Assembly (NCBI GenBank): GCA_036172245.1
Contig: JAYWIR010000021.1
Coordinates: 1,984,001 to 2,048,000 of the forward strand
DNA length: 64,000 nt
Origin: Raillietiella orientalis
Lineage: Eukaryota
Direction of reading: 5' to 3'
Of this stretch, positions 540-53,627 are shown in pieces (position 1 is the first letter of the stretch; every line of letters begins with the position of its first letter). The notes beneath the pieces were generated by a model, which was not told where the DNA came from, did not search any database, and saw only the letters and a program-made list of their open reading frames with translations. Position numbers and translations under genes: made by a program.

Positions 540-935
540 TTTTTTTTTCTTTTCTTTTCTTTTTCGAATGAAAAGGTCACCAGCGACCTCAAGGGGAGAT
601 CGTCACCATTGACCCAGGATGATGGAAATATTTTGGAGGGTTCCTTTTTGTTTTCTTCTGCTTTCCTTCCAGCCTTTTTTTTTTTTTTTTTTTTTTTGAG
701 TTTTTTTTTTGAAAGTTTGCCAAGTGGAGAAGAACTTCCCGCCGGGAGACTTTCACGAAGCTTTGCACCGCTGTTCCAAACCACCCGAGGGTGCGTGTAG
801 TAACTTTAAGTTAGGGAGTAACCCCGGAGGGATTATCCTATGAAACCAGGAAGGCTCCGGAGGAAGGGAGTCCGTTCCTCTCACGCTTGGGAGGGAAACT
901 CCGAAGGGAATCTTCGACATGGTTGTCTCCGATTT
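540..935 (-). mobile_element. 3' part (late body, A-rich linker, tail) of tRNA-derived SINE-like repeat
   Basis: Reverse complement GATTCCCTTCGGAG...CAAGCGTGAGAGGAACGGACTC...CCTTCCTGG...A-run...AGGCTGGAAGGAAA...CTCCCCTTGAGGTCGCTGGTGACC aligns by eye to 7450-7760 and 17940-18225. Confidence 0.7.
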
Positions 936-1720
936 TCACCGGGATACCCCCTCAACGGAGGCGTTCATCAAAATTGAAAAGAAGCTCATAAATTGTGGTA
1001 GGGCGCGTGGTCCAACCACACTCCGTTTGTCCATGGATCTCCTGGGTCTCCGGCACGCAGACCAGCGGGGGTCACCTCGACAGCAGAGGGGGAGGAGAGA
1101 AAAACTGAAAGAATAAAATGAAAGAATACATAAAAATCTTTGGAAGAGTCAGGAGGGGGCCACTGTCCGCTGGAGAAAGTCTGGATCCTTTCCAGGATGC
1201 CAGCTAGGTCCGTCTAAATAGGTCCCAAGTGGGACCATCTGGCTACTGTCATCCACAGAAAGTGGAAGTGTACACTCGATGGGTACCTCCCGTTTCTTCC
1301 TCCGTCGGCTTCGCCCCGGGCAGTCCCGTGGTCTCAGCAAGGAGCTGCTGGGACTGCGGCTGGCTGCAGGGCGTCCCGCACAAAGAGAAACCGTAAAACG
1401 TCCCTAGAGGTGCCATCCCGAATGCGGGGGGCCTCCTCAAAACAGGGGTCCTACCACAACGGCAGGAGGGCAGCACAGTCCACAAGCAGGTGCATGGAGG
1501 GGGGGCTCCCGTTCCGCCCCGCACCTGCAGCAGTCCGGGTCCGCCCTCCCCAGTGTCCGTTGGTGTCGGCGTGTCGGTTGCAGGGAAGATCCCAGTTCAA
1601 CAGCGGAAGTTCCGACTCCCTGCCACTTCAGGGGGATGGTGTGCTGTTCTTGAGCGCCGGGGGGCACTCCAGGTCTTCGCTAAGAATGCTTAGCTGCTCG
1701 CTCCAGCTCTGTACTCCTCG
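935..1720 (-). mobile_element. 5'-truncated, degenerate LINE (L1/Tx1-like ORF2 C-terminus + 3' UTR)
   Basis: Minus strand encodes frameshifted ...IPLKWQ...ADPDCCRCGAERE..HLLVDCAALLPLW... (zf-RVT CCHC) and later ARWSHL...LAGILERIQ; homologous to 18820-19580. Confidence 0.7.
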
Positions 1721-1729
1721 TGGAGAAAA

Positions 1730-2160
1730 AAGTACCTTTCTCTTACGCCTGGAGGGTTGTCTCCCAGGGAAAAACCTCTTCCTTGTTCTTTCCGGAAGAA
1801 CCCCGGAGGGATCCACTTTTTCTTTTCCGAAGGGAACCGGGAAAGGATCCGTCCTTGGAATTTTCTCACCGTAGGGAACCCACACGTGAACCACTCCCTG
1901 TTTCTTTCTCCTCTGAAGAGAACCCCGGAAGGACGCTTCCCTATTTTCCCTGAGGAGCGCTCCCCGAAGGGAGCAGCGCGCTTCTTGGCACCCTGGAAAG
2001 GTATCTATCCACCAGCTCCATGATACGAGATGGAGGGTCCTCCTCATTTAGGGGGGAGGGAGGCAGACCATTTTCGCAACCGGAGGGGTAGGAATTTCCA
2101 AGGACTCCTTGATCCCTGGAATAGACCCGGACCTTCCAACCCCGGCCACTTAACAGGGGC
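1730..2160 (-). mobile_element. Middle body of tRNA-derived SINE-like repeat
   Basis: Reverse complement matches 7100-7500 (GTGGCCGGG...CCAGG.ATCAAGGAGT; GCTCCCTTCGGGGAG; GGTTCCCTTCGGAAAAG). Confidence 0.7.
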
Positions 2161-2184
2161 ATCTTTGTTGAAGGGATGGATTGA

Positions 2185-3060
2185 GACCCGGTCACGCCGG
2201 GACGTTTATTTGCTAAAAATAAGCATAGAGGCCAGTCGCAAGATGCGCGATCCTACTACGTCTCATGGATATACAAAAAGAATCTGCCGGGACCTGGCAC
2301 GCAGTTCAGCGGGATTCACCTCGGCCGCACAGGGGAAGGGGAGACGAACACAAAGAAAAAAATAAAACAAAAAAACCTACAGTCAAAAAAATGAGGGGTT
2401 TCGGGAAGGGATCACTGTGTGCTGGAGGATGTCCTCTGCATTCTTGCCAGGATACCGGCAAGCTCCTGTTTAGAGGCTTCCAGATGGGGACATCTTGACG
2501 CCATCCTCATGAAGAGGACTGGAAAATAGATGGCATCCCTGTCTTTCTGGCCTCCTCTGGAGCTGCTCCGTGCAGCCACCATACCGCCGCGTGGTCAGCA
2601 AAGTGCTGCTGGGAATGTGGCCGGTTTGACGGCTTTTGAGCAGGAAGAGGCGCTTTAAAACGTCCCTGGAGTTGTCCTCGGGGATCTGCAGGGACGTGGC
2701 AAAGCGCTCCCACAGGGAACGGAGAGCAACAGAATCCACGATCAGGTGCGGGAAGGACTATTTCTCGCCGCAGCTGCCGCAGTTCGGGTTCACCTCCTCC
2801 CCCGGGTCCAATGGTGTCGGCGGGTTTTTCACGGGACGTCCCAGTGCAACAGCAGAGTCGTCGACTCATACCACTTTAGGGGGAGGGTAGCACCGTTCCA
2901 ACTGGGAGCCACTTCACCTCCTCTGAAGGAATTTGTAGCAGCTCTCCCCGGCGTAGCAGTCCTCTGGGTGGGGCACTCAGATTCGCAGTGTTAGCCAGCT
3001 CCCGAGTTGTCTACGCACCCGGATGTTTTTTCCTGCTCCTTATCACGAAGGTCACTTCTT
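2185..3060 (-). mobile_element. 5'-truncated LINE (ORF2 C-terminus, 3' UTR, terminal hairpin)
   Basis: NPNCGSCGEK.SFPHLIVDSVALRSLWERF...AAVWWLH...ASRCPHLEASKQELAGILARMQRT; 3' UTR closely similar to 19350-19575; ends AATAAA-CGT-CCCGGCGTGACCGGG (2187-2210). Confidence 0.78.
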
Positions 3061-3069
3061 ATCTCTCTG

Positions 3070-3280
3070 AGGGGGCGGAGGAGTCCCCGGCTTCCACCAG
3101 TGCGGCCGCACCCGAATAGAGGCCAACCAGAGCTACTCGAAGGAAGGATCCGGAACTCACGGCACATCACCATCCATCCTCGACGCTCGTTCTTCCTCGG
3201 GCGGGATTCGAACCCGCGACGCGGGTGGGAATGGTGAGACCGCAGGAGACCGCAGCCGCACGGCCGCCAATGTGGGCCCG
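3070..3280 (-). mobile_element. tRNA-derived head of SINE-like repeat
   Basis: Perfect T-arm/B-box GCGGG-TTCGAAT-CCCGC (~3201-3217), preceded by TTGGCGGCC and followed by CTGGTTGGCCTCTATTCGGGTGCGG, as in the copies at 6905, 12921 and 17430. Confidence 0.72.
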
Positions 3281-3289
3281 TCTTTTTGA

Positions 3290-6904: not shown

Positions 6905-7760
6905 AGCCCGCATCGGAGGCCATGTGGCTGCTGAGGTCTCCGCGCGTCGCACCACCAAGCGTCGCGGGTTTGCATCCCACCCAGGGAGAAGCGACGCCGA
7001 GAGATGGGTGCGTCGTGGGTTCGAGTTCCTCCCGCAAGATGACGCTGGTTGGCCTCCATTCGGGTGCGGCTCCGGTAGCGGTTCAAACAGAAAGCCTGCG
7101 ATGAGTGGCCGGGATTGGGAGTCGAGCTCCGGGACCTTCCAGGAATCAAGGAGTGGTAGTTCTCCTTCGTGCCAAGGAGCGGATCCTCCCCCTCCGGGGG
7201 TACCCTCCGTCTCGTACCATGGAGTAGGTGTGGTACCTCTCCAGAGTGCAAAGAAGAGTGCCTCTCCCTTCAGGGAAGCGCCCTTCCGAGAAAATCCGGA
7301 AGCGTCCCTTCGGGGTTCTCTTCAGAGGAGGAAACAGTAGCGGTTCCCTCGCGGGTTCCCTCGGGAGAAGAAATTCTTACTAGCGTATCCTTTCCGGGTT
7401 CCCTTCGGAAAAGCAAAAATGGTCCCTCCAGAGAGAACAAGGAAGGAGATTCCCTTCAGGGTTCCCTTCGGAGACAACCAGAGCAGAGCTTTCGGGGATC
7501 TCTCCCCAGACGTGAGAGGAACGGACTCCGACCCCTTCCTGGATTCATAGGGTGGTCCCCAACCGGGGGACTTCCTGAAGAATCTTGAAGAATTACACAC
7601 ACTCTCGGATGGCGAGGAAAAGCGTGAAAGAGCTGCGTGAGCAGACGGCTCTTGAGGTGCTCAGCGAACCAAAAAAAAACCGACAAAAAAAAAAGCTGGA
7701 AGGAAAATAGCGAAGACAGAAAAGAACCCAAGAGGATTACCGTCATCCAGGATTTCTCCG
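6905..7760 (+). mobile_element. Near full-length tRNA-derived SINE-like repeat with UUCG-hairpin array
   Basis: Degenerate T-arm GTCGCGGGTTTGCATCCCACCC, second B-box-like GTCGTGGGTTCGAGT, repeated GGTTCCCTTCGG motifs, A-rich linker and AGCTGGAAGGAAA tail; homologous copies elsewhere in the window. Confidence 0.75.
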
Positions 7761-8150
7761 CGGAATCGTGGCTGCTTGGAACGCGAAAAGAAGAGGCCAG
7801 AATGGCAGGGACGCCATCCACTGGGCGCGGATCTTCCTGAGGACCGCCTCGAGATGTCCCCACCTCGACAATATCCTGACAGAACTCGCCAGCATCCTGA
7901 ACGGGATGCAAAGGACGCCTGACCACACCTACCGTGATCCCTTTCTCGTCTTCCCCCCTCCCCTGTTTTGCTTGTTTACTTTTTTTGTTCCCCCCCCATC
8001 CCATGCTGCTGAAGCGGACCTCGCCGGTCTGCGTACCGGTCCTCGGCAGGTTCAGTGAGCGTGGTAAAACCAACGGTTCTGCCACAAAATTGTACTTTCA
8101 TTACCCTGCGTAATAAATGCCGGGAGATAATCATCCAGGATTTCCATCAT
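7760..8150 (+). mobile_element. Short LINE 3' fragment
   Basis: GRDAIHWARIFLRTASRCPHLDNILTELASILNGMQRTP matches the family C-terminus; T-rich 3' UTR, AATAAA at ~8112. Confidence 0.72.
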
Positions 8151-12920: not shown

Positions 12921-13720
12921 TGTCCGTGTTGGCGGCCTGTGAGAAGCTGCGGCTCCGCGCGCGAGCGGCACCATCAGGAGTCGCTGGTTCGAATCCCGCC
13001 CGGGAAACGGGTGCGTCGTGGGTTCCGAGTATCCCCTCGCATATCAGCGGATGGCGCTGGTGGGGCCTCTGTTGGCTTCGGGGCGTGGACGGCACTGGTG
13101 GATGCTCTCCCGTTGACCGGTCGGGATTGGGAGTCGACCCTCCGGGGTCCCTCTCAGAAATCAATGAGTCCCTCCGTTTGTGAAAAAAAGTCCTTCCATC
13201 CCTCCATGTCTTTGTCCTACCAATTCCCGAGGGGAGGGACTCTCCCTCGCGTAGAGTGGAGCTGGTTGATGCCTCTCCAGAGGGTTCATACCCTCTTCAG
13301 AGGATCAGGAAGCGCGCTGCTCCCTTCGGGGAACGCCCTTCAGCATTCTCTTCGGAGGAGGGAGGAATCGGGGAGCGGTTCTCTTGTGGGGGTTCCCTCC
13401 GGAGGAGAAATTCCAGGAGTGGATCGTTTTTTCAGGGTTCTCTTTGGAGAAACTGCCCCTCACGAACCGGGGGTCTCTCCGGAAAGAATGAGGGAAAGGT
13501 ATTCCTCCTTCGGGATTCCCTCCCGGGAGCGAGGGAGGAACACGTACTTCTTCCTCCTCTGGAGCCCTTCCTGGATTCATGGGGTGGTCCCCTCCAGGGA
13601 TCGCCCTTTGACTTGAAAGACTAAGGCTCATTCTCGGATGGCATGAAACGGCTCTCGAAGAGCAGCGTGCCCTCCCGCCCCTCCAAGGAGGCAAGCGGTT
13701 CCCGAGTGCTTAGCAACTTC
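12921..13720 (+). mobile_element. tRNA-derived SINE-like repeat
   Basis: B-box GGTTCGAATCCC at 12986-12997, then GGGTGCGTCGTGGGTTC; hairpins TCCC-TTCG-GGGA and CTC-TTCG-GAG; CCCTTCCTGGATTCAT.GGGTGGTCCCC shared with 7530-7560. Confidence 0.75.
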
Positions 13721-17429: not shown

Positions 17430-18225
17430 CGCCCACCTCAAGGGCCTACGGCCTCCGCGCGTGGCACCAACGGTCACGGATTCAAATCCCACCAGGGAGG
17501 GGGATCGATGCCAGAGAAGATGGAGCGGGAGGAAATGGGTGCGTCGTGGGGTTTCGACTCCCCCCGCAAGATGACGCTGGTTGGCCTCTGTTCGGGCGGG
17601 GCACCGGTGGAACCAGCCGGAAACCGGCTGCTCCCGTTGCGTGGCCGGGATCGGAAGTCGGCCTTCCGAGGAAGTCCCTTCCAGGAAGCAAGGAGTCCTT
17701 CCGGTTATGAAAAGTTCTCCCCCGAGGGGAGGAATCCTCCGTCGCGTATAATGGAGCTGGTTGATGCCTCTCCGCGCTGCTCTCTTCGGGGAGCGACTCC
17801 AAGGTTTTCTTCGGAGGAGGGGAGGAAACAGGAAACGGTTCCCTTGTGGGTGTTCCCTCCGGAGGAGAAATTTCAAGAGCGGATCGTTTTCGAGTTTCCT
17901 TCGGAGAGGCGGCCACTCCAAAGAGCAACCACAGCGAGCGTTCCCTTCGAGGTTCCCTCCCAAGCACGAGAGGAAGGAACTCCTCCCTCCGAAGCTTTCC
18001 TGGATCCATAGCGTGGTCAGCTACGGGGTCTCTTCCCCTCCTATAACTTGGATAGTGACGCGCACCCCCGGGTGGCGAGGACAGTGCTTCAGTACTCGAC
18101 GAACCCGAAGAAAAAAAAAAAAGGCTGGAAGGACATCAACGAAAACAAGGAACACCAAAAGGATTTTCACCATCCTAGGCCGACAGTGACCACCTCCCCT
18201 TGGACTTCGCTACTGACCTTTTTCC
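17430..18225 (+). mobile_element. Near full-length tRNA-derived SINE-like repeat
   Basis: GGATTCAAATCCCACC T-arm, GGGTGCGTCGTGGGGTTTCGACTCCC, CAAGATGACGCTGGTTGGCCTC (identical to 7036-7057), several CTTCGG hairpins, A-run + GGCTGGAAGGA, tail CTCCCCTTGGACTTCGCTACTGACC. Confidence 0.75.
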
Positions 18226-22189: not shown

Positions 22190-22400
22190 AACGCCAGAGC
22201 GCTCTCGTAGAAGCTGACTTCCCTGAGTCTGGGGTCGGGTACAGCGCTTCAGCCTCCAAAAGATCCGAGGAATGGACAGCGGCGATTTTATGATCCAGGT
22301 CAGCGATCAGTTCGCGACTGGTGGTCAGCAGAAAGAGGATTCCGGACAGTTCGCCATTTCCGGCAGGAAGCAGACAGTTCCGACGGGGGGAACTCCTAAG
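22190..22400 (-). mobile_element. Second LINE RT-motif fragment
   Basis: 22313-22393 is a diverged copy of 21611-21692; encodes ELSGILFLLTTSRELIADL. Confidence 0.45.
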
Positions 22401-22404
22401 GGAA

Positions 22405-22812
22405 ACCTCCGAGGACCCCTCGGAGGGGACCGCTCCTGGAATTTCTTCTCTGGAAAAGCCACCTGCAAGGGGACTGCTTCTCTTTTCCTCCTCTGAAGAG
22501 AACTCTGAGGGCTGTTCCCCGAAGTGACCAGTGCGCTTATCCTTCACACTCTTGAGATGCAGCTCCCCGAAGAGGGTAAACCAACTCCTTGGAGCACCAC
22601 AGAGAATCCCCCCGGGACGACGAGGGTCATTTCCATTCACAAAAACTGGAGAACTTCTTGATTCCTGGAAGGACCCCGGAGGGTCAGTATCCCCATCCCG
22701 ACCGGTCAATCGGGACATCCGGTTTCCGGTTTACCACCAGTGCCGCACCCGGATGCAACAGAGTCCAGCCAGAGTCGTCCTGCGTACCCACGACGCACCC
22801 ATTTCCCAGGGG
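22405..22812 (-). mobile_element. SINE-like repeat body lacking the first tRNA head
   Basis: Reverse complement GGGAAATGGGTGCGTCGTGGG...CGGGTGCGGCACTGGTGG...CCTCCGGGGTCCTTCCAGGAATCAAG...CCCTCTTCGGGGAG. Confidence 0.72.
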
Positions 22813-22824
22813 CTCAATCCTTTA

Positions 22825-24230
22825 TTTTCACCCGGTCACGCCGGAGCGTTGATTGTAAAAAAAAAAATTTTCACAAAAAGAAAACCAGTCGTATATAAAA
22901 GATGAAAAAAGTGTCTTCCTTCGTGGCGGCTTCAAATGACCACTACGGAGGGAAATGTCTCGAAGGCGCTCTCTCGTGGGCAACAGCTCCTCCGATGAGG
23001 TCCGCACTGGAGAGGTAGAGGGGGAGGGTAAACAAGAACAAAAGAGAGAAAACACAAACGTTCAGTTTCAAAAAAGGTTGGAGAGGGAGGGAAGGGATAG
23101 CAGATTTCTCTCTGGTGTCTTCAACATCCTCTGGAGGATGTTGGCAACTTCCTCCTCCTTTTGCTGGCAGGGTGCGGCCATCTTCTCGCCGCCTTCCTCA
23201 TGAAGGAGCAGACGATCTGGATGACGTCACCGTTCGACCAGCCTCTTTTGGTGTGGCCTTTTCGCCCCCACGATCCCACGAAGACAGCCCGGGGCTGCAA
23301 GGGAGGAAGCTGCAGGCGACGTGGAGTCGCGAGCGAAGAGGCGCCGCAAGACCTCTCCGCCGCTGCCCGTCGGGAGCGGGAGGGCCGCACAGGAGCTCTC
23401 CCGGACACTCGGGAACGACACGATCCAGCAACACGTGCGGTGAAGGTTTCCCGTTCCCCGCACCTGGCGCAGTCCGAGGCCGCACTCCCCCCCCGTTTCA
23501 TAGTGGACTCGCGCGTTGCATGGGACCTGCGATGCCGAGTCCCGCCACTTCAGAGGAAGCGTGGAACTGTCCACAAACATCGGGGGTATTCCTGGCTCTT
23601 CAGGAGGAATGTTCAGGACTTGCACCCAGCGACGAACTTCTCTGGGGAGGGCGGCGGGGTATATGCGTCAGCCAGCGGGTGTCTCTTCCAGCATCCCAGC
23701 TGCTTCTTCTTTCCCGCGATCTCGTAGGAGACTTCCCATCTCGCGAGGCCATCGCTATCTTCCACTTTGTCGCATGGCGTCCAGCGTGGACGTAAGTGGG
23801 GTGTTCCGCGCCCAGGTGGCCTTCCGCGGGCAGTCCACGGCTTCCTGCAGCGAGCAGCGAGTCCTTGGGAAGGATGACCCAAGAAAATCAGCTTGGCGTG
23901 AAAGACAAGCAAGGGCCAAAGAGTGCAACAAACCAAGAAAGTGTATGACGTGTGACGTGCTTGAAAGAGGCGCGCCGGGAATCGATCGCTGATGGACTGA
24001 CGGCGAGGCGCAGAGTCCAGGCGACATTGAGAATTTTCCAACTGCTTCGTCCTGGAGAATCGCGACGGAAAGGAGGAAGATGGGGAAGATGCCTTCCGAA
24101 TGCCTTCCTTGCCAACGCCCAGCCAATGAGCGGCTCCAGCATCCCAGGTGCACACGAGCGGAGCACGAAATGCGGCTCTGAGACATGGTGGCTGCGGGAG
24201 AGTTCCTTCCCCCCTTTTTTTCTCGAAAGG
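22825..24230 (-). mobile_element. 5'-truncated LINE
   Basis: SDCARCGERETF (zf-RVT), ARRWPHP...VANILQRML; terminal CCGGCGTGACCGGG at 22831-22844. Confidence 0.7.
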
Positions 24231-30184: not shown

Positions 30185-30390
30185 GTCAAGTGCGAGGCTC
30201 AAGGGGAGGGGGGGGCAGGAAAGTACCACGTGGGTATCCCCCCTTCCCCCCGGCGAAAAAGGTGAATTCTCGGTGTGCTATCGAGTTGGCTGTAAAGGCT
30301 GTACACGCCGCTTGCCAGTGATGGAAATCCCGTGGGTTCTTCCTTCTCTCTGTCTTCGCTGTTTTCCTTCCAGCCTCTCTTTCCTTTAGG
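30185..30390 (-). mobile_element. Tail fragment of the SINE-like repeat inside the Ginger element
   Basis: AGGCTGGAAGGAAAACAGCGAAGACAGA...GAACCC..GGATTTCCATCA ... CTCCCCTTGAGCCTCGCACTTGAC matches the tails at 7690-7750, 18120-18220 and 575-675. Confidence 0.6.
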
Positions 30391-30413
30391 AGTCGTCAAG
30401 TCAGAAACCGGTA

Positions 30414-31181
30414 GTGGAGGAGGTGCCGAGATCAATCCACGAAAAGATGAGTCGAACGGGGACGCTCGCACCTCAGGGAATCATCCCGAAGGAGGATCTT
30501 GGCAATGAGGAAGCAGAAATAGATGATTCGAGAGAAGACTTGCGGTTACTAACCGTGGGAGATGCAAGAAAAAATGGAAATGAGAGCGTTGGCCAAATCA
30601 AAGACGAACAGCATTCTCCTGAAATAGAACGGACCGATGAGAAAGATGACAAAGTAAAAGACGCTGCTGACGTTGAATTGGAAAATGGTGGAAGAATAGA
30701 AAACAAGGAAGATTCTTCTTCTTCTTCTTCTTCTGCACTCATCGAGATCCCCGAAATGACTCCAGAAGCTCGAAAAACTCCGCTGAGCGGCCACCGAGAA
30801 GGGAAGCTGAAAGAGTGTTTCGGCTTTCGAAGACCGAAACGCCCCATTGCGGATGCAGGGGAAAGCGTCCGGATGGGGACTCCAGATGCAGATAGGGCGA
30901 AAGCCGGCGACCGGAATATCATGGCCGTCGTGGTGTCCGTTGGAAACGGAAACTTGTACAAACTCGGCAGAACACGTTTTGAGCCACCTCTGTACAAGGG
31001 ACGAATGTACCGTCTGCAAGGGAACTTTCATTTCAGCTCATGAAGAAAATGTGCTCCCGAGAATTCTTCTAATTTAGGTAGCCAAGGATCCCCATATTGC
31101 AATTGTACGGGCTGTTGGGACTCAAATCGCCGCCAACGCAATTCCAAATGCCACAAAGGTTCTTTTTGCAAAACCAAATAG
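30414..31181 (+). pseudogene. C-terminal remnant of Ginger/KRBA2-like integrase-transposase
   Basis: ESVRMGTPDADRAKAGDRNIMAVVVSVGNGNLYKLG and, after frameshifts, GSQGSPYCNCTGC...NSKCHKGSFCKTK*, resembling the C-terminus I recall for KRBA2/SCAND3-like transposases; no DDE core seen. Confidence 0.65.
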
Positions 31182-44800: not shown

Positions 44801-47800
44801 AAATGGAATCGGATCCGATGCTTAATATGTCTGATGCGGGACCATTAGCAGACTTGAAACACAATCCGGACCGTTACCTCGAAGCTGGGAAGATGCTACT
44901 TGTGTTCTGTGCTCGGAAACGAATGCTTGGTGAATTCTTTCGAGAAAGCGTCTCTACATCGCTGCCTTACAATGTCCAAGATGCTGGAGAAAAGATGCAA
45001 AGCTATACTGACTCAGGAATGCCCTCGACCGAAAAAAAAATAAGTTTAACTGGTCTTTGGCTCATCAACAAATTGAAGAGCCACGGAGAAACAGAATCCA
45101 CAAAAATGCAAATGAGCTGAAAGCAAAAATGCAGCCGCCAGGACTGAAATGACGATTGCGAAGCGCCTCTGAGAAACGGCCAAAGTATTCGAGCACAAAT
45201 GAAGGAATACGAGAGCACGGAGGAGATACCACAATTCAACACGTACGCTAATTAAGCAGAGGTCCAAAGATGCAACATGGGAAGGAGGAATGGATTAAGG
45301 GGAAACGCGAATCCTCAAACGCGGTCTCTGGGTGTCGAAACTTGGCAGGGCAGAAGAAAAAAAACAAAGCACTCCTTTCGGATGCACAGACAGCAATAAG
45401 AAACTGGAACAACCCGTGAAAAGTGAAAAAGACGCGGAAAAAAAAGATCGATTTGCAAGTCCCAGAGCCCCCCCCCCCCCACACACACACACACACAAAC
45501 ACACACACAATTGCAGAAAGACATGAAAAACAAAATGGAAAGAGTCGCAAGTGGACAACTACTGGCTTGGGTTCCAGCCCTGAATGAGTCCCCTAAACGG
45601 ACACTGCACTTTGAATTGTGTGCTGGAGTTTAAGAATGTTTTAGACAGCCAGGGCTAATATTAAGGAAACGGAGGAGAACAGCGAAGAAGCGAGTGTGAA
45701 TGGCTCTCCGTGGCTCCTCAGGATGGTATTTCGTCTGCTTTCCTCGGAGGCGACGCAGCAAGAGGAAGAAAAAAAAAAAAACCGGAAAAACCACATCGAC
45801 AGGAAACCTCGTGGTCCACTCCTTCTCAAGTGACCCAAGACCGAAACAGAAACCACAAAGCGAGCATCTCTGGCGAGAACGGGCGTGTGAGAAAAACCGA
45901 GGAGTGTTCGAACAGCCAACGTAATCATATGCAAAATATGCAAACTAGGTCCGGGTATCCGCTGGAGCTCCTTAATTGCCTTTGTAGTTCGAGGAAAGAC
46001 ACTTCGATCTTCGATTGATACGAAGGCACACATCGGCATCTCTTCATCCACTTTACTCGAGCGGAAGAGCAGAGTACCTGGCTGCAGCAGAGTGCGCGGG
46101 GTGAATGGCAAGTTCTCTCTCCACGTTCGGAAAACGAAGTTTCGATTTCGACAAATGCAGAGCGAATTTCCAATCGTGAGGACGCAGCAAGAGGAGCATC
46201 GACATCAAGGGTTAAGGAGCCACGTTAATTCCGGACGCGAAGGCCCCCCCCGCTACAGGAGCGCTCGCTTCAATGGCTATGTGCGTTATTTTGTTCTGAA
46301 CTCGGAACCACCTGGTGGCGTACAATCGAACGGAGTCTCCAAAGCAGATTCGACAAGTACAGAAATTAGAACGGCGACTTCTTGGCAGGAATTTCAAGAA
46401 TCAGCTTCCTGGGACACCCGCAAAACGAGGAAGAGACGGGAGGGGGACGGGAAGAAAATGGGGGGGGGGGGGGTGAACCTTGCCAAAAGCGGAGTCCACT
46501 TTCGCGAATAAAGAAAATCACACCGGACAGGAACGAACGGACTATCGTGGATACCCATCGTGGGCAAAAGTGCGGTGCCCGGAAGCCGGCGTCCAGAGGT
46601 CAACACTGCCCCCTGCCGTCTACGAGCTAGCGCAAAAAAACACATCTGTTTAGGAAGGAGACGATTTTCCTTCCGGGTGCACGAAACTCGGGGCATCAAC
46701 GAAATACAGTCTGTGTGTGTGTGTGTGGGGGGGGTGCAGACTGGACAAGATCTGAACTTTCATTCAACCGCGTAAACAAAACAGCATAGCGGGACACCGC
46801 AATGACTGTTTTCCTTCCTCCCTCAGGAATGGAAAATCACAAATATGTTGCTGCGACCCTCCACGAGGTACCTGAAGATATCGAACTGTTCCAAGCTGGA
46901 GGGCGACGTCATGTTGAAAGCGTTCCCCAACTTGCAAACCATCGTCTTCGAAAAAATAGGGAACCTGCTTTTGTCCGGATTCTTCGCGCGCAGCAAAATT
47001 AACATCCAGAAGCTGTCGTTTCTGGACTGCCGCGCGGTTTCGCTGCCCCGAGGCTGCTTCGCGCACCTGAGGCGCATTGGGACCATAGAGTTCAACAGGA
47101 CCTCCGTCCGTTCCATAGACTCCGGAGCCTTCCGCATACAGTACATAAATCGCTTTACAATCGCGGAGTCTGTGATCGGCCTGATCCAATACCAAGCCTT
47201 GGATTTCGACCACATGGAAGCATTCGACGTCGTGAACTCTTCGCTGGAGTTCGAGAACCGCGCTCTGCGCATCACCAAGGCCGACCGATTCTCGCTGAAG
47301 AAGTCTTTCGTGCTGAAAGGATTTCCGAAGGAGGCCGTGCGAATTAACATCGTGAACAGATTCACGCTGGACAGGAATTCACTGGGAACAACGGAAAGAT
47401 ATGCCTTCAGCTTCGAGAGATCGAACGTCGTCGTCATCGTCCGAAACTCCTTCGAGGGACTGCTCAAAGATGACGCATTCGGCCTGCTCAGCGCCCACAG
47501 GCTGATATTCGTGGGGAATTCGATAAGAGAGGCCGAGCCCCACTCCCTACATTTCCACGCCTTACACACGGTCATCAACGAAAACAGACTGACAACGGGA
47601 AGGACACCGCCCAAAAAGCTCTTATTCCATAAATGAAAACTCACGGTTCTAGCACGTAGTCATATCTTCCTCCCTGGAGCCTTTGCTGACAATACATCAA
47701 ATTGAAATCGGTCATCAACATGATTATTTTTTGCAGCGCTTCTTTCTCTCTGATGCTATACAACTGGAAGTTGATCTGGCAGTGGGACAACGTGATAAAA

Positions 47801-48334: not shown

Positions 48335-51300
48335 GGACAACTCTTTCGCCTTTCGTTCAACTTCGAAAGTCGAAAATTCGATACATTCGCCGACCTCATC
48401 CGCCTTATGAGAACCAGGACAATCGGCCCTACGATAACACCTTAGCATTTCTTAAGGAAGGGGTGACAACCGCTCGGTGCAAAAACGGCCTTCTTCCGAA
48501 CGAGGAAAGACTTCCGAACCGCACATTCACGGGAAATCTGTTGGAAAAATTTTGCACATCCGCCGCGTTCTCGACGGAGTGACCTTTGGCGCCTTTGAGA
48601 CGATGGAAAAAGTGCACTCCACACGTGCACCTTCTGCATTCTTACACATTTCGAATTCCCGACCACTCGGCAGTTTTCGTTTTCGCTCCCGATAACTCTA
48701 AATTTGAAATGTTTGCAGCTTTAGGCCGAAACGGCCACGGGGGAAGGTTTGAAGGTTGGATCAAAAGCAGTCTCCCCCCTGCGTCCATTCATTCCTCTCG
48801 GCCCACCCTGCACGAAATCTTTACGCGAGATCACCAAGGAGATGATGCAAGCTCCGTTTCAAACACTGGACTTCTGGAGCAAACCAGGATTTCAGGACCC
48901 AATCTTAAAAGGCGATGATGCCCAACTCGCTTTTACTCACTCCTCCGTGCTCTGCAACGCGTTAAGCACGAACGCTATCACGGGAAACACGTCGACGCTC
49001 ATTCGAGTGCCAATTCGCTGCAAGATGAACAAACGTAACATCAATTCCCTTTGGATACATCGACATTATTATTACATTTTGTGGAAAATGCTTTCGATCA
49101 ACTGGACAACGCGCCAGTGCACTCTTCTAAGCGTGTTGAGGGGGACATGCTGACTTTTCTAGAGCACATCTTCCACGGAAGCACAAGATTTTATTTTCGG
49201 ACGTGACTTGAGGAAGGTGACCACCGAGTATAGATAAAGGTCCGATACGAAGACAAATTCTACTTCAAAAATATAGCCAATACACTACATAATCCTGTGT
49301 GATCTCGTGGATTTCCGGCAACTGGAGGAGCATACCTCAAAAGACACAAATTGACCACCGGAGACCCCGGAGATACTTTTCTTCCTGTTAGCATAATCGT
49401 TTCTTTTCCTGAAAAACGTGCATTCCTCCACGTGCAAAGACAGGCATTCTCCCACCGAAAAATATGTGCATTCTGGAAAAAAAACGTATCCTTCTGCTGA
49501 ACACCCCCGTCCCGTTTTTTACAGCATGGCATGCTTTCCGGAAGCAAACTGAAATTATTCGCTTGGATGATGGAGTTCCTCCTTTTCGTAGGTTTAGGTC
49601 CAATTTGCAACTGTAGCAATATAAAGTAAGGAGATCGAGCTTTTCATGGCGAAGCTTCCTATAAAATTCTTCGTTTGTCTTCGTTTAGGCAGATCTGAGA
49701 GGTACAGCAACGCACTGCTGTGCCAAAATAAATTCATCCATTACATTAATGAATCTACCTGATCATTCACGAAATGGGAATTGAATGTTTTAATTCCTGA
49801 AAGCTCATTAAATTCTCGAAATTTGGTGAAGGGGGGAGGGGGGGAGAACACACATTTCAGCAAAAGGATTCCTAGGTACGAGGCAATTATCCCTGTCATG
49901 TATCATTCCTGCTCGCAAACCGGTGAGCAAAAAGCAAAGGATGTTCTGGAGAGAACACGTGCATGGATGGCTACACCAACGCGACACACTTTGCTGGATA
50001 ATAAATGCAACGTGAAAGCAGCAGCTTCGCTTACACAACTGACTGCTTCTCCATAATTTATCCAAATAGGAGACTAAGAACGACCTAAGTTTGCTACAGA
50101 GAATCGAATTCCATAGCTGAATGAACCCAATATCAATGTAACTTTGAAAGAACTCAGAACATATCCGGAGACTATTTTTCAAAGATAGATCTGCTTCAAA
50201 ATGACATTTCACTTAATTCCATTTACAACCATAACAAACTGCAACTATAAACAGGCAAGCAAACAGCTATGATGAAGTAGAATACTTCCTAGAAAATTTC
50301 CGATATCTTCCTGGATAACTGATTAATGCACGTGGAATATTTTGTTACAGAGGACGCTTTTCTTCTTTCTCCCTCTCTCTCCCGCCCCCCCCCCCCCGTC
50401 AACTCTCTCCATCCGTCAACTCCGACGCGTACTTTTCGAACACACGAAAATCCGCCTCCGTCGCACTTTCTCTGAGGAGACGGCAGTCCGCATTCACAGG
50501 GAGCCGCCGGGACTCAGCAGCTTTTCTCATTAGCCACAGCACCCTGGGCCCTGCCTGCGAATCAGGGAGGTCGGAACCTGAAGGATCCGAAGAGGCTGGG
50601 GAGATGCTCACAGAATTCGTTTGCGTCCGGAGTGGTTAAAAGAAGAAGAAGGAAAGGCAGCCAAGGGGAGCAAAATCTCGAGTCGAGGCGAAGACCGCGA
50701 TTCGGCAAAGTTTCCGCACAAGGGTTGCCGACTTACCGCATCCAAAGAATGCTCTTTAAATTTCAACCGCAGATAATTATCGAACAATCCTTGGTGCAGC
50801 TTCGAAGGTTCTCCGTACAGGTCGCTGAGACGCAGAATATGCTCAAACCGGGTTGACAGATTTGACTGCTCCAGATTCCTGAGCCCACAAAGTACGTAAC
50901 TCCGTGCTTCCGATACTTACGAACTTTTTATTTCGCGGCATCAGAAAAATTTCCTTCAACACTTGGGAGAACCCTTGGTGCATATCTTTCTTCCCAACAG
51001 GGCGTTCTGTTAGGTGAGAAAGCTGCAGACACCGACAACGACTGCCAAGAAACTGTAATGTTGACAAACAGGAACGAATGTCGCAGCCACTCATCTCGGC
51101 CAAAGTGAAAAGCACAGTCATGCTGGCTTGCAAGCCTTCCTGGAAGGCAATCTCTTGCAACCGAAGTGCCAAACTTGAGGGTGACACAGGGGAAAAGTGA
51201 AAAATCAAGGCATGCTGCTTTAGTGTACGCAAAGAAGGAGCATACTGGTCATTGCAAATGCATATTATTGGTCTTCGCAGAAATCTACGCTTGTTCTCTT

Positions 51301-53627
51301 TCTTTGCCCTCACACCAAGCAATAATTTGATCAACGTATCAATGGCGCCCTGGAACAGATAAACTTGCACCCCGAGCCAAAATATGGCAACACATTACCG
51401 CAGGAGCCCCATCGATTTCATCAATAATCAGGCAATTCGGTTTCGCACCACTTCCAAAGACACTTTTCATTTTTCCAGATGCTTCGATCTGAATCATGAA
51501 ATTTTCTGGGCTTCGATCATCACTGGCGTTCATCTCAACCACATTATACCCAGCATGCTCGGCAATGACATGAGCAAGTGTGGTTTTGCCCACACCTGGA
51601 TTTCCACAAAGTAAAGCAACTTTTTGCTTGGGAAAATTCTGCTCATCCAGCTCCGGAATAAACTGAGATCCTGCAATGAACGTCAAATGGATCATATAGA
51701 AAACATACTTAGGTACTCCAAACCTGCAAAAGATAACATTGGTTTATTGCTAGACACATTCTTCATGCTTGGAACATCTCTGTTGAATACAATTTTATCC
51801 CAAAGCTTTAACCACTGTAACAACGTTCTGTTTACGCTCTTATAAATGGCTTGATTGGAAGAAGAACACATGTTTATTAAACTTTACCTCTTCACTTAAT
51901 AAGTGTCGGTAACTTCGGGGTCGATAGTGCTCTGTCCATAAATCATGGGATAAATAACTCTCTGTCACCATATCATTATCTGGCATATCACGAGCTGACA
52001 TTTTGAAGACAGCTTTCTTAGAAATCTACAAGATTGTTAGCAAGTTGTAATTAATAAGGGATATTCACCTGACCTCATCTAATGCCATGCTTTTCAGGAC
52101 ATCAAATGGAGTTGCTAAAATATGCCCACGTGTAGGAGTAGCAATACCTTTAAGTTCTTCTCGCAGTCTGATATAATATCTATTACCAGTTTCTAATGTG
52201 ACTGATACATATTTTCCTTTTGGAATCCGCCGAAGAATTTTGCTAATGTACGGTATTTCTCTTCACAAAAAATTGAGCTACGAATATCATGGTGGACATA
52301 TACCTATTTATCAAGTCACAAGACTTATCAAAGGTTTTTTGATAACTACGATTTGGGGGATATTCTAAACAGTCACGATCTATTTGCCTTTTCTTGATCT
52401 GCAAGTTGAAAACTTCTTCATTATCAAAATACTTTCTTTTGCTCTCTTTCACCACTGGAAATGGAAAATCATGAAAATGGAAATAAAAAACAACTTTATG
52501 CACACAACCAGTAGATAATCAATACTGGTTATTCATTAAAGACTGAAATTGTTCAATAACGAATTAAAATCTAGGATGTGAAACAAATCCGGGACAACAA
52601 TAGGGTGTTTCTTGTTATAAGAATGAAATAAAAATGCTGATGTTACAGTGAAGCTTGCAGACCAAACAGTGGAGCACCGGTTGCATATCTATGGGCTTGA
52701 TAATGTTTCCTATTTCTGGCCATGCAAACAAGAACATGGCTTGTAATAACAACTGCTTATGGCAACCAGGGTAAATGGCTAGTAACAAAGATCAGTGCAC
52801 TGGATCTCAGCTATACTACCATAACATGACAAGTATGCGTCGAGCCAATTCAAAACTTGTGTGTATAGTTTGAACTTTACTAAAATCAAACAAATGCCAC
52901 GTTTGAATAGCTTGAGATGAATTAAAAACCAATGAACATCATAAATTGCGTGTACAGCATGTGCATTACAGAAACATGCTTTTATATGCTACACTTTTCT
53001 GACAATACGAATTAAGGCCAGAAACTTCATATAAGGTGAGACAATTTCATGAAGCAACATAAAATTTAGGCAATGGTCAGCTGCAAATTCATTTACGCTA
53101 ATTTTAAATGTAAAACTAAATGAAATGAAATGCTCTCACATAATGGACATGCCAAACAGGGTTTAACTGGGGATTTTATGCACTTTTTGGAAAACAAATG
53201 ACTCTCCCTGAAAATTAAGTAAAACTTGGAATGTGAAAACAAATGGAATTACGAGGAAATTCTCGCATTTCTTGGAAGAAATTTCAAATGCTTGTTTAAT
53301 TTCATCGGAATTGTAAAATAAACTATAAGACTAGCTTACAATTGACTTTAGCAACTGAATTTTCTATTTTCCAAATGTCATGCATGTCTAGGCTTTCTTC
53401 GGTATATGCTGTAGACTGCATGATTGGAGAAAATGAATCATTTTCTGAAAAGAAATGTAGGCTCCGTCTAGATGAAGGGACATGTATTTCTTCTTCTTCA
53501 TTTGCTGTAAGTTTACAAGTAGAGCTAATTCATTACAATGCACTGTCTTACAATCTAATTCATGCATCATGGCAATTTCATCAGCATACATCAGAGCATA
53601 AGGATCATCCATGTACTCTGAGCCCAT
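32826..53627 (-). CDS. CHTF18: Chromosome transmission fidelity protein 18 (RFC-like clamp-loader AAA+ ATPase), multi-exon
   Basis: Phase-consistent GT-AG exons: 53552-53627, 53340-53504, 52304-52454, 52074-52260, 51888-52025, 51724-51838, 51399-51670, 50921-51349, 50737-50865, 48038-48208, 47831-47980, 47645-47775, 37156-37372, 33442-33517 (tentative), 32826-32938. Motifs: LWTEHYRP, NRTLLQWLKLWD, Walker A GNPGVGKT, EMNASDDRS, Walker B IIDEIDG, RRPIICICND, CDIRSC, QLYSIREK, KQLIAKELE, C-terminal VWFHFKEGYSSAVRRNIKMRDLL. Confidence 0.93.
36978..37135. repeat. Degenerate ATAG/ACAG-type simple repeat in a CHTF18 intron
   Basis: ATAGACATAGATACAGATATAGATAG... low-complexity run. Confidence 0.8.
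40864..47636 (+). CDS. Secreted/extracellular leucine-rich repeat protein, nested antisense in a CHTF18 intron
   Basis: Phase-0 exons: 40864-40992 (signal peptide-like MKLSVQWLPLLCLLSV, donor GTAAGT); 42692-42919 (LRRNT-like CHPFCRCVEDAIICHC; alternative acceptor may start it at 41384); 46827-47636 (~9 atypical ~24-aa LRRs, e.g. SLPRGCFAHL, SIDSGAF, TERYAF, LKDDAFGLL). Confidence 0.78.
40997..41022. repeat. (GGT)n microsatellite at the start of LRR intron 1
   Basis: Directly visible. Confidence 0.9.

Follow-up and report, generated by a model that had tools for sequence, protein, structure and literature searches.

A long tRNA-derived SINE family in Raillietiella orientalis: largely tailless copies and fixed landing sites for two LINE subfamilies

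The repeat and its surroundings in the window

The window is a stretch of 64,000 nt from contig JAYWIR010000021.1 of Raillietiella orientalis (assembly GCA_036172245.1, positions 1,984,001–2,048,000 of the forward strand); all positions below are those of the window unless stated otherwise. It holds copies of a repeat, LINE fragments and three host exons:

6906–7750 (+): flagged SINE copy, subfamily A; 5′-complete, ends at the 3′ hot spot, without the terminal hairpin
6906–6988 (+): tRNA-derived head of the flagged copy; closest of the genome's own tRNAs is Arg-CCT; B box (6966–6977) damaged
7008–7046 (+): second T-arm/B-box-like segment (box 7017–7029); its 3′ part pairs onto the head in predicted folds
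7066–7080 (+): hairpin position that is the antisense landing site of the second LINE subfamily; empty in the flagged copy
7262–7510 (+): diverged array of ∼40-nt hairpin units, with CCC-TTCG-GGG at 7306–7315
7671–7695 (+): internal A-run, at which some copies were primed; lost from subfamily Y by deletion
7696–7750 (+): purine-rich tail with a small 5-bp hairpin, ending CATC/ATCC; targeted by LINEs and the hot spot of 3′ truncation
7757–8132 (+): 5′-truncated L1/Tx1-like LINE of the tail-targeting subfamily, with a 12–14 bp target duplication (7745–7756 / 8133–8144)
12921–13717 (+): old subfamily B copy, 3′-truncated before the A-run; three c(TTCG)g stems
17430–∼18237 (+): old subfamily B copy, with the terminal hairpin (18177–18219) and T-run retained
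545–3285 (−): one subfamily B copy in three pieces (3285–3091, 2170–1722, 932–545)
2923–2173 and 1679–∼902 (−): LINE 3′ fragments splitting this B copy, in the same orientation as the SINE
22384–22823 (−): partial subfamily B copy, abutted on its 5′ side by a LINE 3′ end (23586–22824)
30319–30375 (−): SINE tail-only fragment, found by profile search
46806–47636 (+): host exon, leucine-rich repeat protein
50843–51394 (−): host exon, RFC1/CTF18-like ATPase lid
53994–∼54731 (−): host exon, BMP type I receptor kinase

The repeat was recovered, by self-comparison and by profile search, at all six places where the initial annotation had put it. At two of them the description changes: the sequence placed at 540–3280 (−) is a single copy split by two LINE fragments, and only a tail fragment, 30319–30375, is present within 30185–30390 (−), with a local score of 53 against 25 for the best of 300 shuffles. 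The B-box head, internal A-run (7671–7695) and conserved tail described for the flagged copy are all there, and the copy is 91% identical to the subfamily A consensus, in which it is itself included.

The antisense SINE tail at 30319–30390 forms a pyrimidine tract ending in AG, directly before a + strand frame of 217 aa (30390–31043). The arrangement resembles a splice acceptor, and the frame has no Pfam match. Among the host exons, that of the BMP type I receptor kinase is at most 65% identical to any animal protein among the matches listed, which come from many animals.

A long SINE with four subfamilies

The window repeat is a long, recently active tRNA-derived SINE, dispersed and non-coding. 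With the flagged copy as query, 5,750 first-look candidates were found in the genome, 40 of which were scored. In a tree of 136 copies we distinguish four subfamilies: B (old), A (middle-aged), Y (young) and D (youngest). Their consensus sequences measure 909 nt for B, 882 nt for A (without the terminal hairpin, to which a tail of ∼45 nt is to be added), 828 nt for Y and 1,091 nt for D. The subfamilies are set apart by 8–24% divergence, by large indels and by diagnostic changes of their own. Copies of D are 95–99.6% identical to their consensus, mostly 99%, and Y copies are ∼5.5% diverged from theirs. Reading frames in the consensuses are short-lived and differ between copies.

Copy number was estimated from 20 arbitrary 10-kb stretches. 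Six of these were occupied, by seven copies or pieces in total; this corresponds to ∼35 copies or pieces per Mb and to 2.1% of the 200 kb, and extrapolation from this sample to the 210-Mb genome gives ∼7,000 copies. The repeat is thus interspersed, non-tandem and present in at least 100 copies, as SINEBase requires of a SINE. Target-site duplications, which the initial annotation had proposed to look for, are present around D and Y copies, and the subfamilies are accordingly non-autonomous and retroposed. A single-gene Pol III ncRNA, which had been offered as another reading, is unlikely, because subfamilies with diagnostic changes and fresh target-site duplications are those of a propagating retroposon.

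The suggestion of an unusually long tRNA-headed SINE was correct: the consensuses span 828–1,091 nt, against 75–662 nt for the 175 families covered by SINEBase (PMC3531059). The definition given there takes short to mean <1 kb, with <700 bp also given (PMC3531059). Subfamilies B, A and Y lie below 1 kb and D lies above it; all four exceed 700 bp. The size range of SINEs would therefore extend past 1 kb.

Rfam gave no meaningful match for the window, nor for one young copy at E ≤ 10, and ARAGORN gave no meaningful tRNA match in the 64-kb window. The exact 24-nt tail motif of the SINE had no matches in metagenome contigs. In the Y copies (L081–L110), CpG transitions stood at 5.5% against 4.8% elsewhere. 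There is thus no excess CpG decay, which suggests that the SINE is not CpG-methylated in the germ line.

The head and the 3′ end

The head was compared with 54 of the 62 tRNA loci listed for the genome. It shares its +1 position with tRNA-Arg(CCT) and is 61–71% identical to it over 68–72 aligned nt (B 51/72, A 44/72, Y 46/68, D 48/72; 55–65% when gap columns are counted). With gap columns uncounted, identity is therefore at least 60% over at least 60 nt, the level that SINEBase sets for a tRNA origin. For the B head, tRNA-Arg(CCT) has the top score (66, with the next at 58); for the D head, Gly and Thr tRNAs score equal to or above it. The head is predicted to fold as long hairpins rather than as a cloverleaf. 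One of the 54 loci was called by ARAGORN with the anticodon CTA (Pyl/amber), which may be an intron or a mis-call.

An HDV-like ribozyme was considered, by eye, for the second T-arm segment. This reading was dropped because the segment pairs onto the head with two-sided changes and because the Rfam ribozyme models gave no score.

The true 3′ end lies ∼45 nt past the limits first assigned to the repeat and consists of the 5-bp hairpin, a 45-nt terminal hairpin, TTT and poly(A). The module that follows the A-run is already found in the oldest subfamily (B), and one young subfamily (Y) has the A-run deleted. The consensuses contain no AATAAA before the T-run. None of the four has an internal run of four T, a feature that is weak alone (P 0.04–0.24 each). 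From this, the conserved B box and the sharp +1, we infer that the SINE is probably transcribed by Pol III. One Y copy (L169) has a fold-back arrangement, with its own tail repeated in inverted form after the terminal hairpin.

Most copies in the examined sets are 5′-complete and tailless

Insertion was studied in 20 independent D copies (21 retrieved, one duplicate insertion left out) and 30 Y copies. In the D set 19/20 and in the Y set 29/30 start within 10 nt of +1; both sets are the top hits of long queries, by which complete 5′ ends are favoured. In the arbitrary sample, five of the seven pieces begin within 15 profile positions of the start.

The 3′ ends are a different matter. Among the D copies, four carry poly(A), two are full length without a tail and 14 are 3′-truncated. 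Only one of the 30 Y copies has poly(A), and 20 of them end at nt 785–791, a 7-nt window directly before the terminal hairpin; as the Y query stopped at ∼nt 765, ends past that point were not selected for. A simple-repeat tail, in the form of poly(A), is thus found in 5/50 young copies. Target duplications of 9–15 bp flank 9/20 D copies (0.5% of 400 shuffled pairs), and duplications flank 4/30 Y copies (0% of shuffled pairs). Most copies in these sets are therefore 5′-complete and tailless.

In five of the eight tailless copies with a scored duplication, the duplication overlaps the SINE end by 3–4 nt, and the internal A-run served as the priming site of three D copies. ATC occurs 6–24 nt upstream of the 5′ end in 15/33 copies ending at the hot spot, compared with a background of 21.8% (p = 0.002), and in 10/50 copies that end earlier. 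The 3′ truncation, the overlaps and the ATC enrichment agree with tailless retroposition, which is marked by truncated 3′ ends and a target complementary to the end of the RNA. The D ends fall in RNA predicted to be single-stranded (0.69 unpaired versus 0.43, P = 0.0016); the hot-spot ends of Y do not (0.38 versus 0.44, P = 0.88).

A clean target duplication is seen in only one of the 20 hot-spot Y copies, so that part of the hot spot could reflect later loss of 3′ ends. Carried further, the whole hot spot could be post-insertional: the endonuclease of the tail-targeting LINE would cut at CATC/ATCC, and repair would delete the hairpin, the tail and the duplication. The hot spot is indeed the target site of that LINE, and 19/20 hot-spot Y copies are without a clean duplication. 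However, all three D copies ending there (L216, L217 and L224) have full or near duplications with a target that matches the SINE end, ATC is enriched in the 5′ flank, and the ends lie within 7 nt, probably tighter than deletions would be. We consider wholesale post-insertional loss unlikely and favour priming inside the RNA as the main source of the truncated ends.

The UUCG hairpins descend from one amplified unit

The initial annotation described the body as an array of c(UUCG)g-type hairpins and quoted four of them. Those at 7306–7315, 13321 and 13348 are real stems, but that at ∼17897 lies in a copy without any c(TTCG)g stem of at least 3 bp. The enrichment of TTCG loops is genuine: the three + strand copies contain 1, 3 and 0 such stems, against 0.04–0.05 in 1,000 dinucleotide shuffles, and none of these copies has an antisense c(TTCG)g stem. 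The consensuses have 4 (B), 4 (A), 1 (Y) and 2 (D) UUCG stems, with 0.03–0.04 expected, at positions that partly differ, and these counts are not independent because the stems sit in a tandem ∼40-nt unit.

The unit is most clearly seen in the A consensus, whose body has a period of 40 nt (self identity 0.47 at lag 40). Each unit corresponds to one bulged hairpin plus a purine-rich linker, the loop being TTCG, TTGC, TTCC or TCCG; each unit has two CCCTTCGG-like motifs, of which one is the loop and the other the 3′ arm of the stem. In the D consensus some UUCG loops have been exchanged for TGTG, TGCG or GNRA, so that loops are swapped among the subfamilies between UUCG, UUGC, UUCC, UCCG, UGUG and GNRA. 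CpG decay was rejected as the origin of the TTCA loops on the CpG transition levels given above (5.5% against 4.8%).

The proposal of a persistent, multivalent UUCG array is therefore not supported, as loops are swapped and only one and two UUCG stems are left in Y and D, the youngest subfamilies and those with the most recent success. Given the tandem unit and the 4/4/1/2 counts at partly other places, the UUCG enrichment is real, descended from one amplified unit and not maintained. By itself the array matters little and is the least informative feature of the repeat. Literature searches, which left out Repbase and most subscription papers, found neither another SINE with a UUCG array nor another SINE serving as a LINE target.

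Selection on the fold

The fold of the flagged copy has z = −2.0. Stem covariation, which the initial annotation had proposed as a test, was seen when D was aligned pairwise with A and with Y, but not in comparisons with B or in a four-way alignment. With pairs predicted from one consensus and aligned pairwise, changed pairs were kept or broken in the ratio 17/7 for D versus Y and 16/6 for D versus A, compared with 39% kept in dead copies (p ∼0.002). Five changes from D to Y are two-sided, and several stems have gained a base on both sides when consensuses are compared. Between A and D, Watson–Crick pairs changed to G-U 17 times and to A-C 3 times, against 178:156 in dead copies (p = 0.003).

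The same kept/broken test was not significant for the comparisons with B or for A versus Y, and paired and unpaired substitution rates between consensuses differed significantly in one of four tests. When D changes were polarised in the four-way alignment, 15 pairs were kept and 24 broken, which is the neutral rate, with G-U and A-C at 9 versus 8. In the terminal hairpin (39 copies), conservation was 0.91 at paired and 0.89 at unpaired positions, with almost no two-sided changes. The outcome depends on the alignment. The case for selection on local stems is about evenly balanced, and selection on the UUCG loop itself is unlikely.

These tests also bear on whether the repeat might be a functional host Pol III RNA with a protein-binding, UUCG-capped fold, its dispersed copies being tailless retropseudogenes. 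Tailless, 5′-complete copies are a hallmark of retropseudogenes of cellular RNAs (PMC5322556), and the two-sided changes between subfamilies (3–4 pairs) and the excess of G-U over A-C from A to D (17 to 3, p = 0.003) would fit, as would a D copy (L214) that ends in T5 without a tail or duplication. Against this, the four subfamilies differ by 8–24% and by large indels, which is too fast for one host gene; there is no Rfam family; the UUCG loops are not kept; and the polarised four-way test (15 kept, 24 broken) gave the neutral rate. L214 carries 10 substitutions relative to the D consensus, for which it was also rejected as a source gene. A host RNA is therefore improbable, and a propagating SINE remains our preferred reading.

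LINEs land at fixed positions in the SINE

Near-intact APE-RT LINEs of L1 type are numerous in the genome and often lie head to tail. These array LINEs lack poly(A): at their 3′ ends AATAAA is followed by a hairpin and then by AATC-like bases. In the window, the older and dispersed LINE family has a similar 3′ end, likewise lacking poly(A). The array LINEs have APE and RT domains and L1-like relatives, and the RT piece of the targeting subfamily is 34% identical to them. From their habit and domain layout these LINEs may be labelled Tx1-like.

The tail-targeting subfamily was searched for with a query spanning SINE tail and LINE, with the tail scored separately in only 3/40 hits. All 13 of the 5′ junctions lie on a same-sense SINE tail (nine placed by script, +5 to +17 relative to the site, and four by eye); these junctions were selected since the LINE ended inside the query, and junctions were retrieved for part of the matches. 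On the 3′ side, 27 junctions comprise seven that lead into the SINE terminal hairpin, 19 at which ATC follows, perhaps in part as the end of the LINE itself, and one that is another subfamily. Two longer copies likewise have a SINE tail upstream. In the window, the LINE at 7757–8132 has its own 12–14 bp duplication, which begins at the CATC/ATCC of the SINE.

A second LINE subfamily was searched for with a LINE-only query, and 20 of 40 hits were retrieved (those reaching the 3′ end, duplicates skipped). It lies antisense near nt 177 of the SINE in 15/20; of the remaining five, one is at another SINE site, one is followed by a young D copy and three are outside the SINE. Both figures, 13/13 and 15/20, exceed the >20% of flanks in one repeat at one site that is taken to indicate target specificity (PMC4494074). 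Two LINE subfamilies therefore use fixed SINE positions as landing sites, and the site of the tail-targeting LINE coincides with the 3′ hot spot of the SINE. That the SINE is the LINE's 5′ UTR, or that SINE–LINE chimeras arose by template switching, might be read from the LINE fragments that directly follow the SINE tail in the same orientation, yet is extremely improbable and for the split copies refuted, because the SINE is split by the LINE, the starts of the LINE pieces vary within the last part of ORF2, the duplication at 7745–7756/8133–8144 surrounds the LINE alone, the SINE terminal hairpin resumes after the LINE in 7/27 junctions and the near-intact LINE arrays contain one SINE piece in 15 stretches of ∼10 kb.

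With 72–81% identity between copies, the tail-targeting LINE is as old as B and A; a younger, less specific relative must therefore have moved Y and D. Most SINE copies are not located in other SINE tails. No LINE sharing extended sequence with the SINE tail was found among 30 + 30 tail hits, which were all SINE pieces, or in the 15 LINE-array stretches. An escape of D from LINE targeting through changes at both sites was considered and rejected, since the tail variant in question also occurs in an A copy (L003) that had been hit.

Several further arrangements were noted. The LINE 3′ fragments at ∼902–1679, 2173–2923 and 22824–23586 (−) each sit within a SINE copy and are oriented like it, at positions other than the two above; there are thus hints of more targeting subfamilies. 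The arrays (L141–L155, e.g. on C71, C114, C53, C26 and C33) consist of near-intact L1/Tx1-like LINEs with an ORF2 of ∼1,200 aa at a spacing of ∼5.5 kb, each element running into the next; several are near contig ends or fill small contigs. Self-targeting or telomere-like arrays are possible. In one array (L146, C30:2715001–2725000) an RT frame of a different type leads into the 3′ hairpin end that the array LINEs have. Elsewhere (L335, C1:7123300–7123430), a young D-type SINE begins directly after a LINE 3′ end in the same orientation.

DISCUSSION

We consider it highly probable that the repeat is a tRNA-Arg-derived SINE which is moved by L1/Tx1-like LINEs and mostly primed internally, with UUCG hairpins that are amplification remnants and with fixed positions at which LINEs land. 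In the mechanism we propose, an L1/Tx1-like LINE protein would nick DNA and reverse-transcribe the SINE RNA, as the target duplications indicate. For priming, the nicked target would mostly pair over a few bases with a site inside the RNA rather than with poly(A), giving rise to the 5′-complete, 3′-truncated copies observed. The commonest such site would be the CAUCAUC that directly precedes the terminal hairpin and is similar to the tail-less ‘hairpin + AATC’ end of the LINEs. The UUCG hairpins would be left from an old tandem amplification of the 40-nt unit; stable stems may be favoured, the identity of the loop probably not. Being abundant and dispensable, the SINE would offer LINE subfamilies suitable fixed positions.

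A more far-reaching version, which we hold only tentatively and think rather doubtful as a whole, makes SINE and LINE a reciprocal pair. The conserved tail would be at once the LINE's DNA target and an RNA mimic of the LINE end, with a single nucleotide marking both the landing point of the LINE and the start of reverse transcription on the SINE RNA; the tailless route would be the normal one, and a 1.1-kb Pol III RNA would be shaped by selected local hairpins.

Because the LINE target would also be the SINE priming site, a long-standing question becomes testable in one system, namely whether a LINE reverse transcriptase picks its passenger RNA by 3′ structure or by pairing between RNA and target. 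Assays of this kind could draw on the youngest subfamily (99%) and on the near-intact LINEs that the genome also contains.

Comparison with known systems

As with the tRNA-derived SINEs with a body of unknown origin in SINEBase (PMC3531059), the family has a tRNA head, a non-coding body, thousands of interspersed copies, subfamilies and an internal tandem motif; a tandem motif, of ∼20 nt, is noted there for the SINE CHRS (PMC3531059). It differs from the SINEs covered in that source in its length (828–1,091 versus 75–662 nt), in its 40-nt hairpin unit and in that most copies are tailless. With polyadenylated (T+) SINEs, such as rodent B2, it shares a terminator-like T-run directly before the A-tail; in contrast to these, its consensuses are without AATAAA before the T-run.

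Tailless retropseudogenes have been described in therian mammals and anole as occasional events (Noll et al. 2015, PMC5322556). The features shared with them, as far as described there, are complete 5′ ends, truncated 3′ ends, a target duplication, a target complementary to the last bases and L1-type machinery. Here, however, the template is a SINE rather than a cellular RNA, tailless copies are the majority in the sets examined, and one hot spot is not predicted to be single-stranded. A SINE family would thus have tailless retroposition as its chief route, in a lineage other than those for which the process has been described.

Among target-specific LINEs of the Tx1 clade, Tx1 lands in Tx1D, Tx1-Mar in Mariner-N4_AMi and Keno in U2 (Kojima 2015, PMC4494074), and the targets given for the clade include DNA transposons, LTR elements, snRNA and 5S genes, satellites and microsatellites (PMC4494074; PMC8869645). 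In common with those accounts, the LINEs described here are APE-RT elements with one landing position in another repeat and no long tail, a likeness of habit and domains. Unlike the targets listed, the target here is a SINE, used by two LINE subfamilies at two sites, and SINEs would thereby join the landing sites of sequence-specific LINEs.
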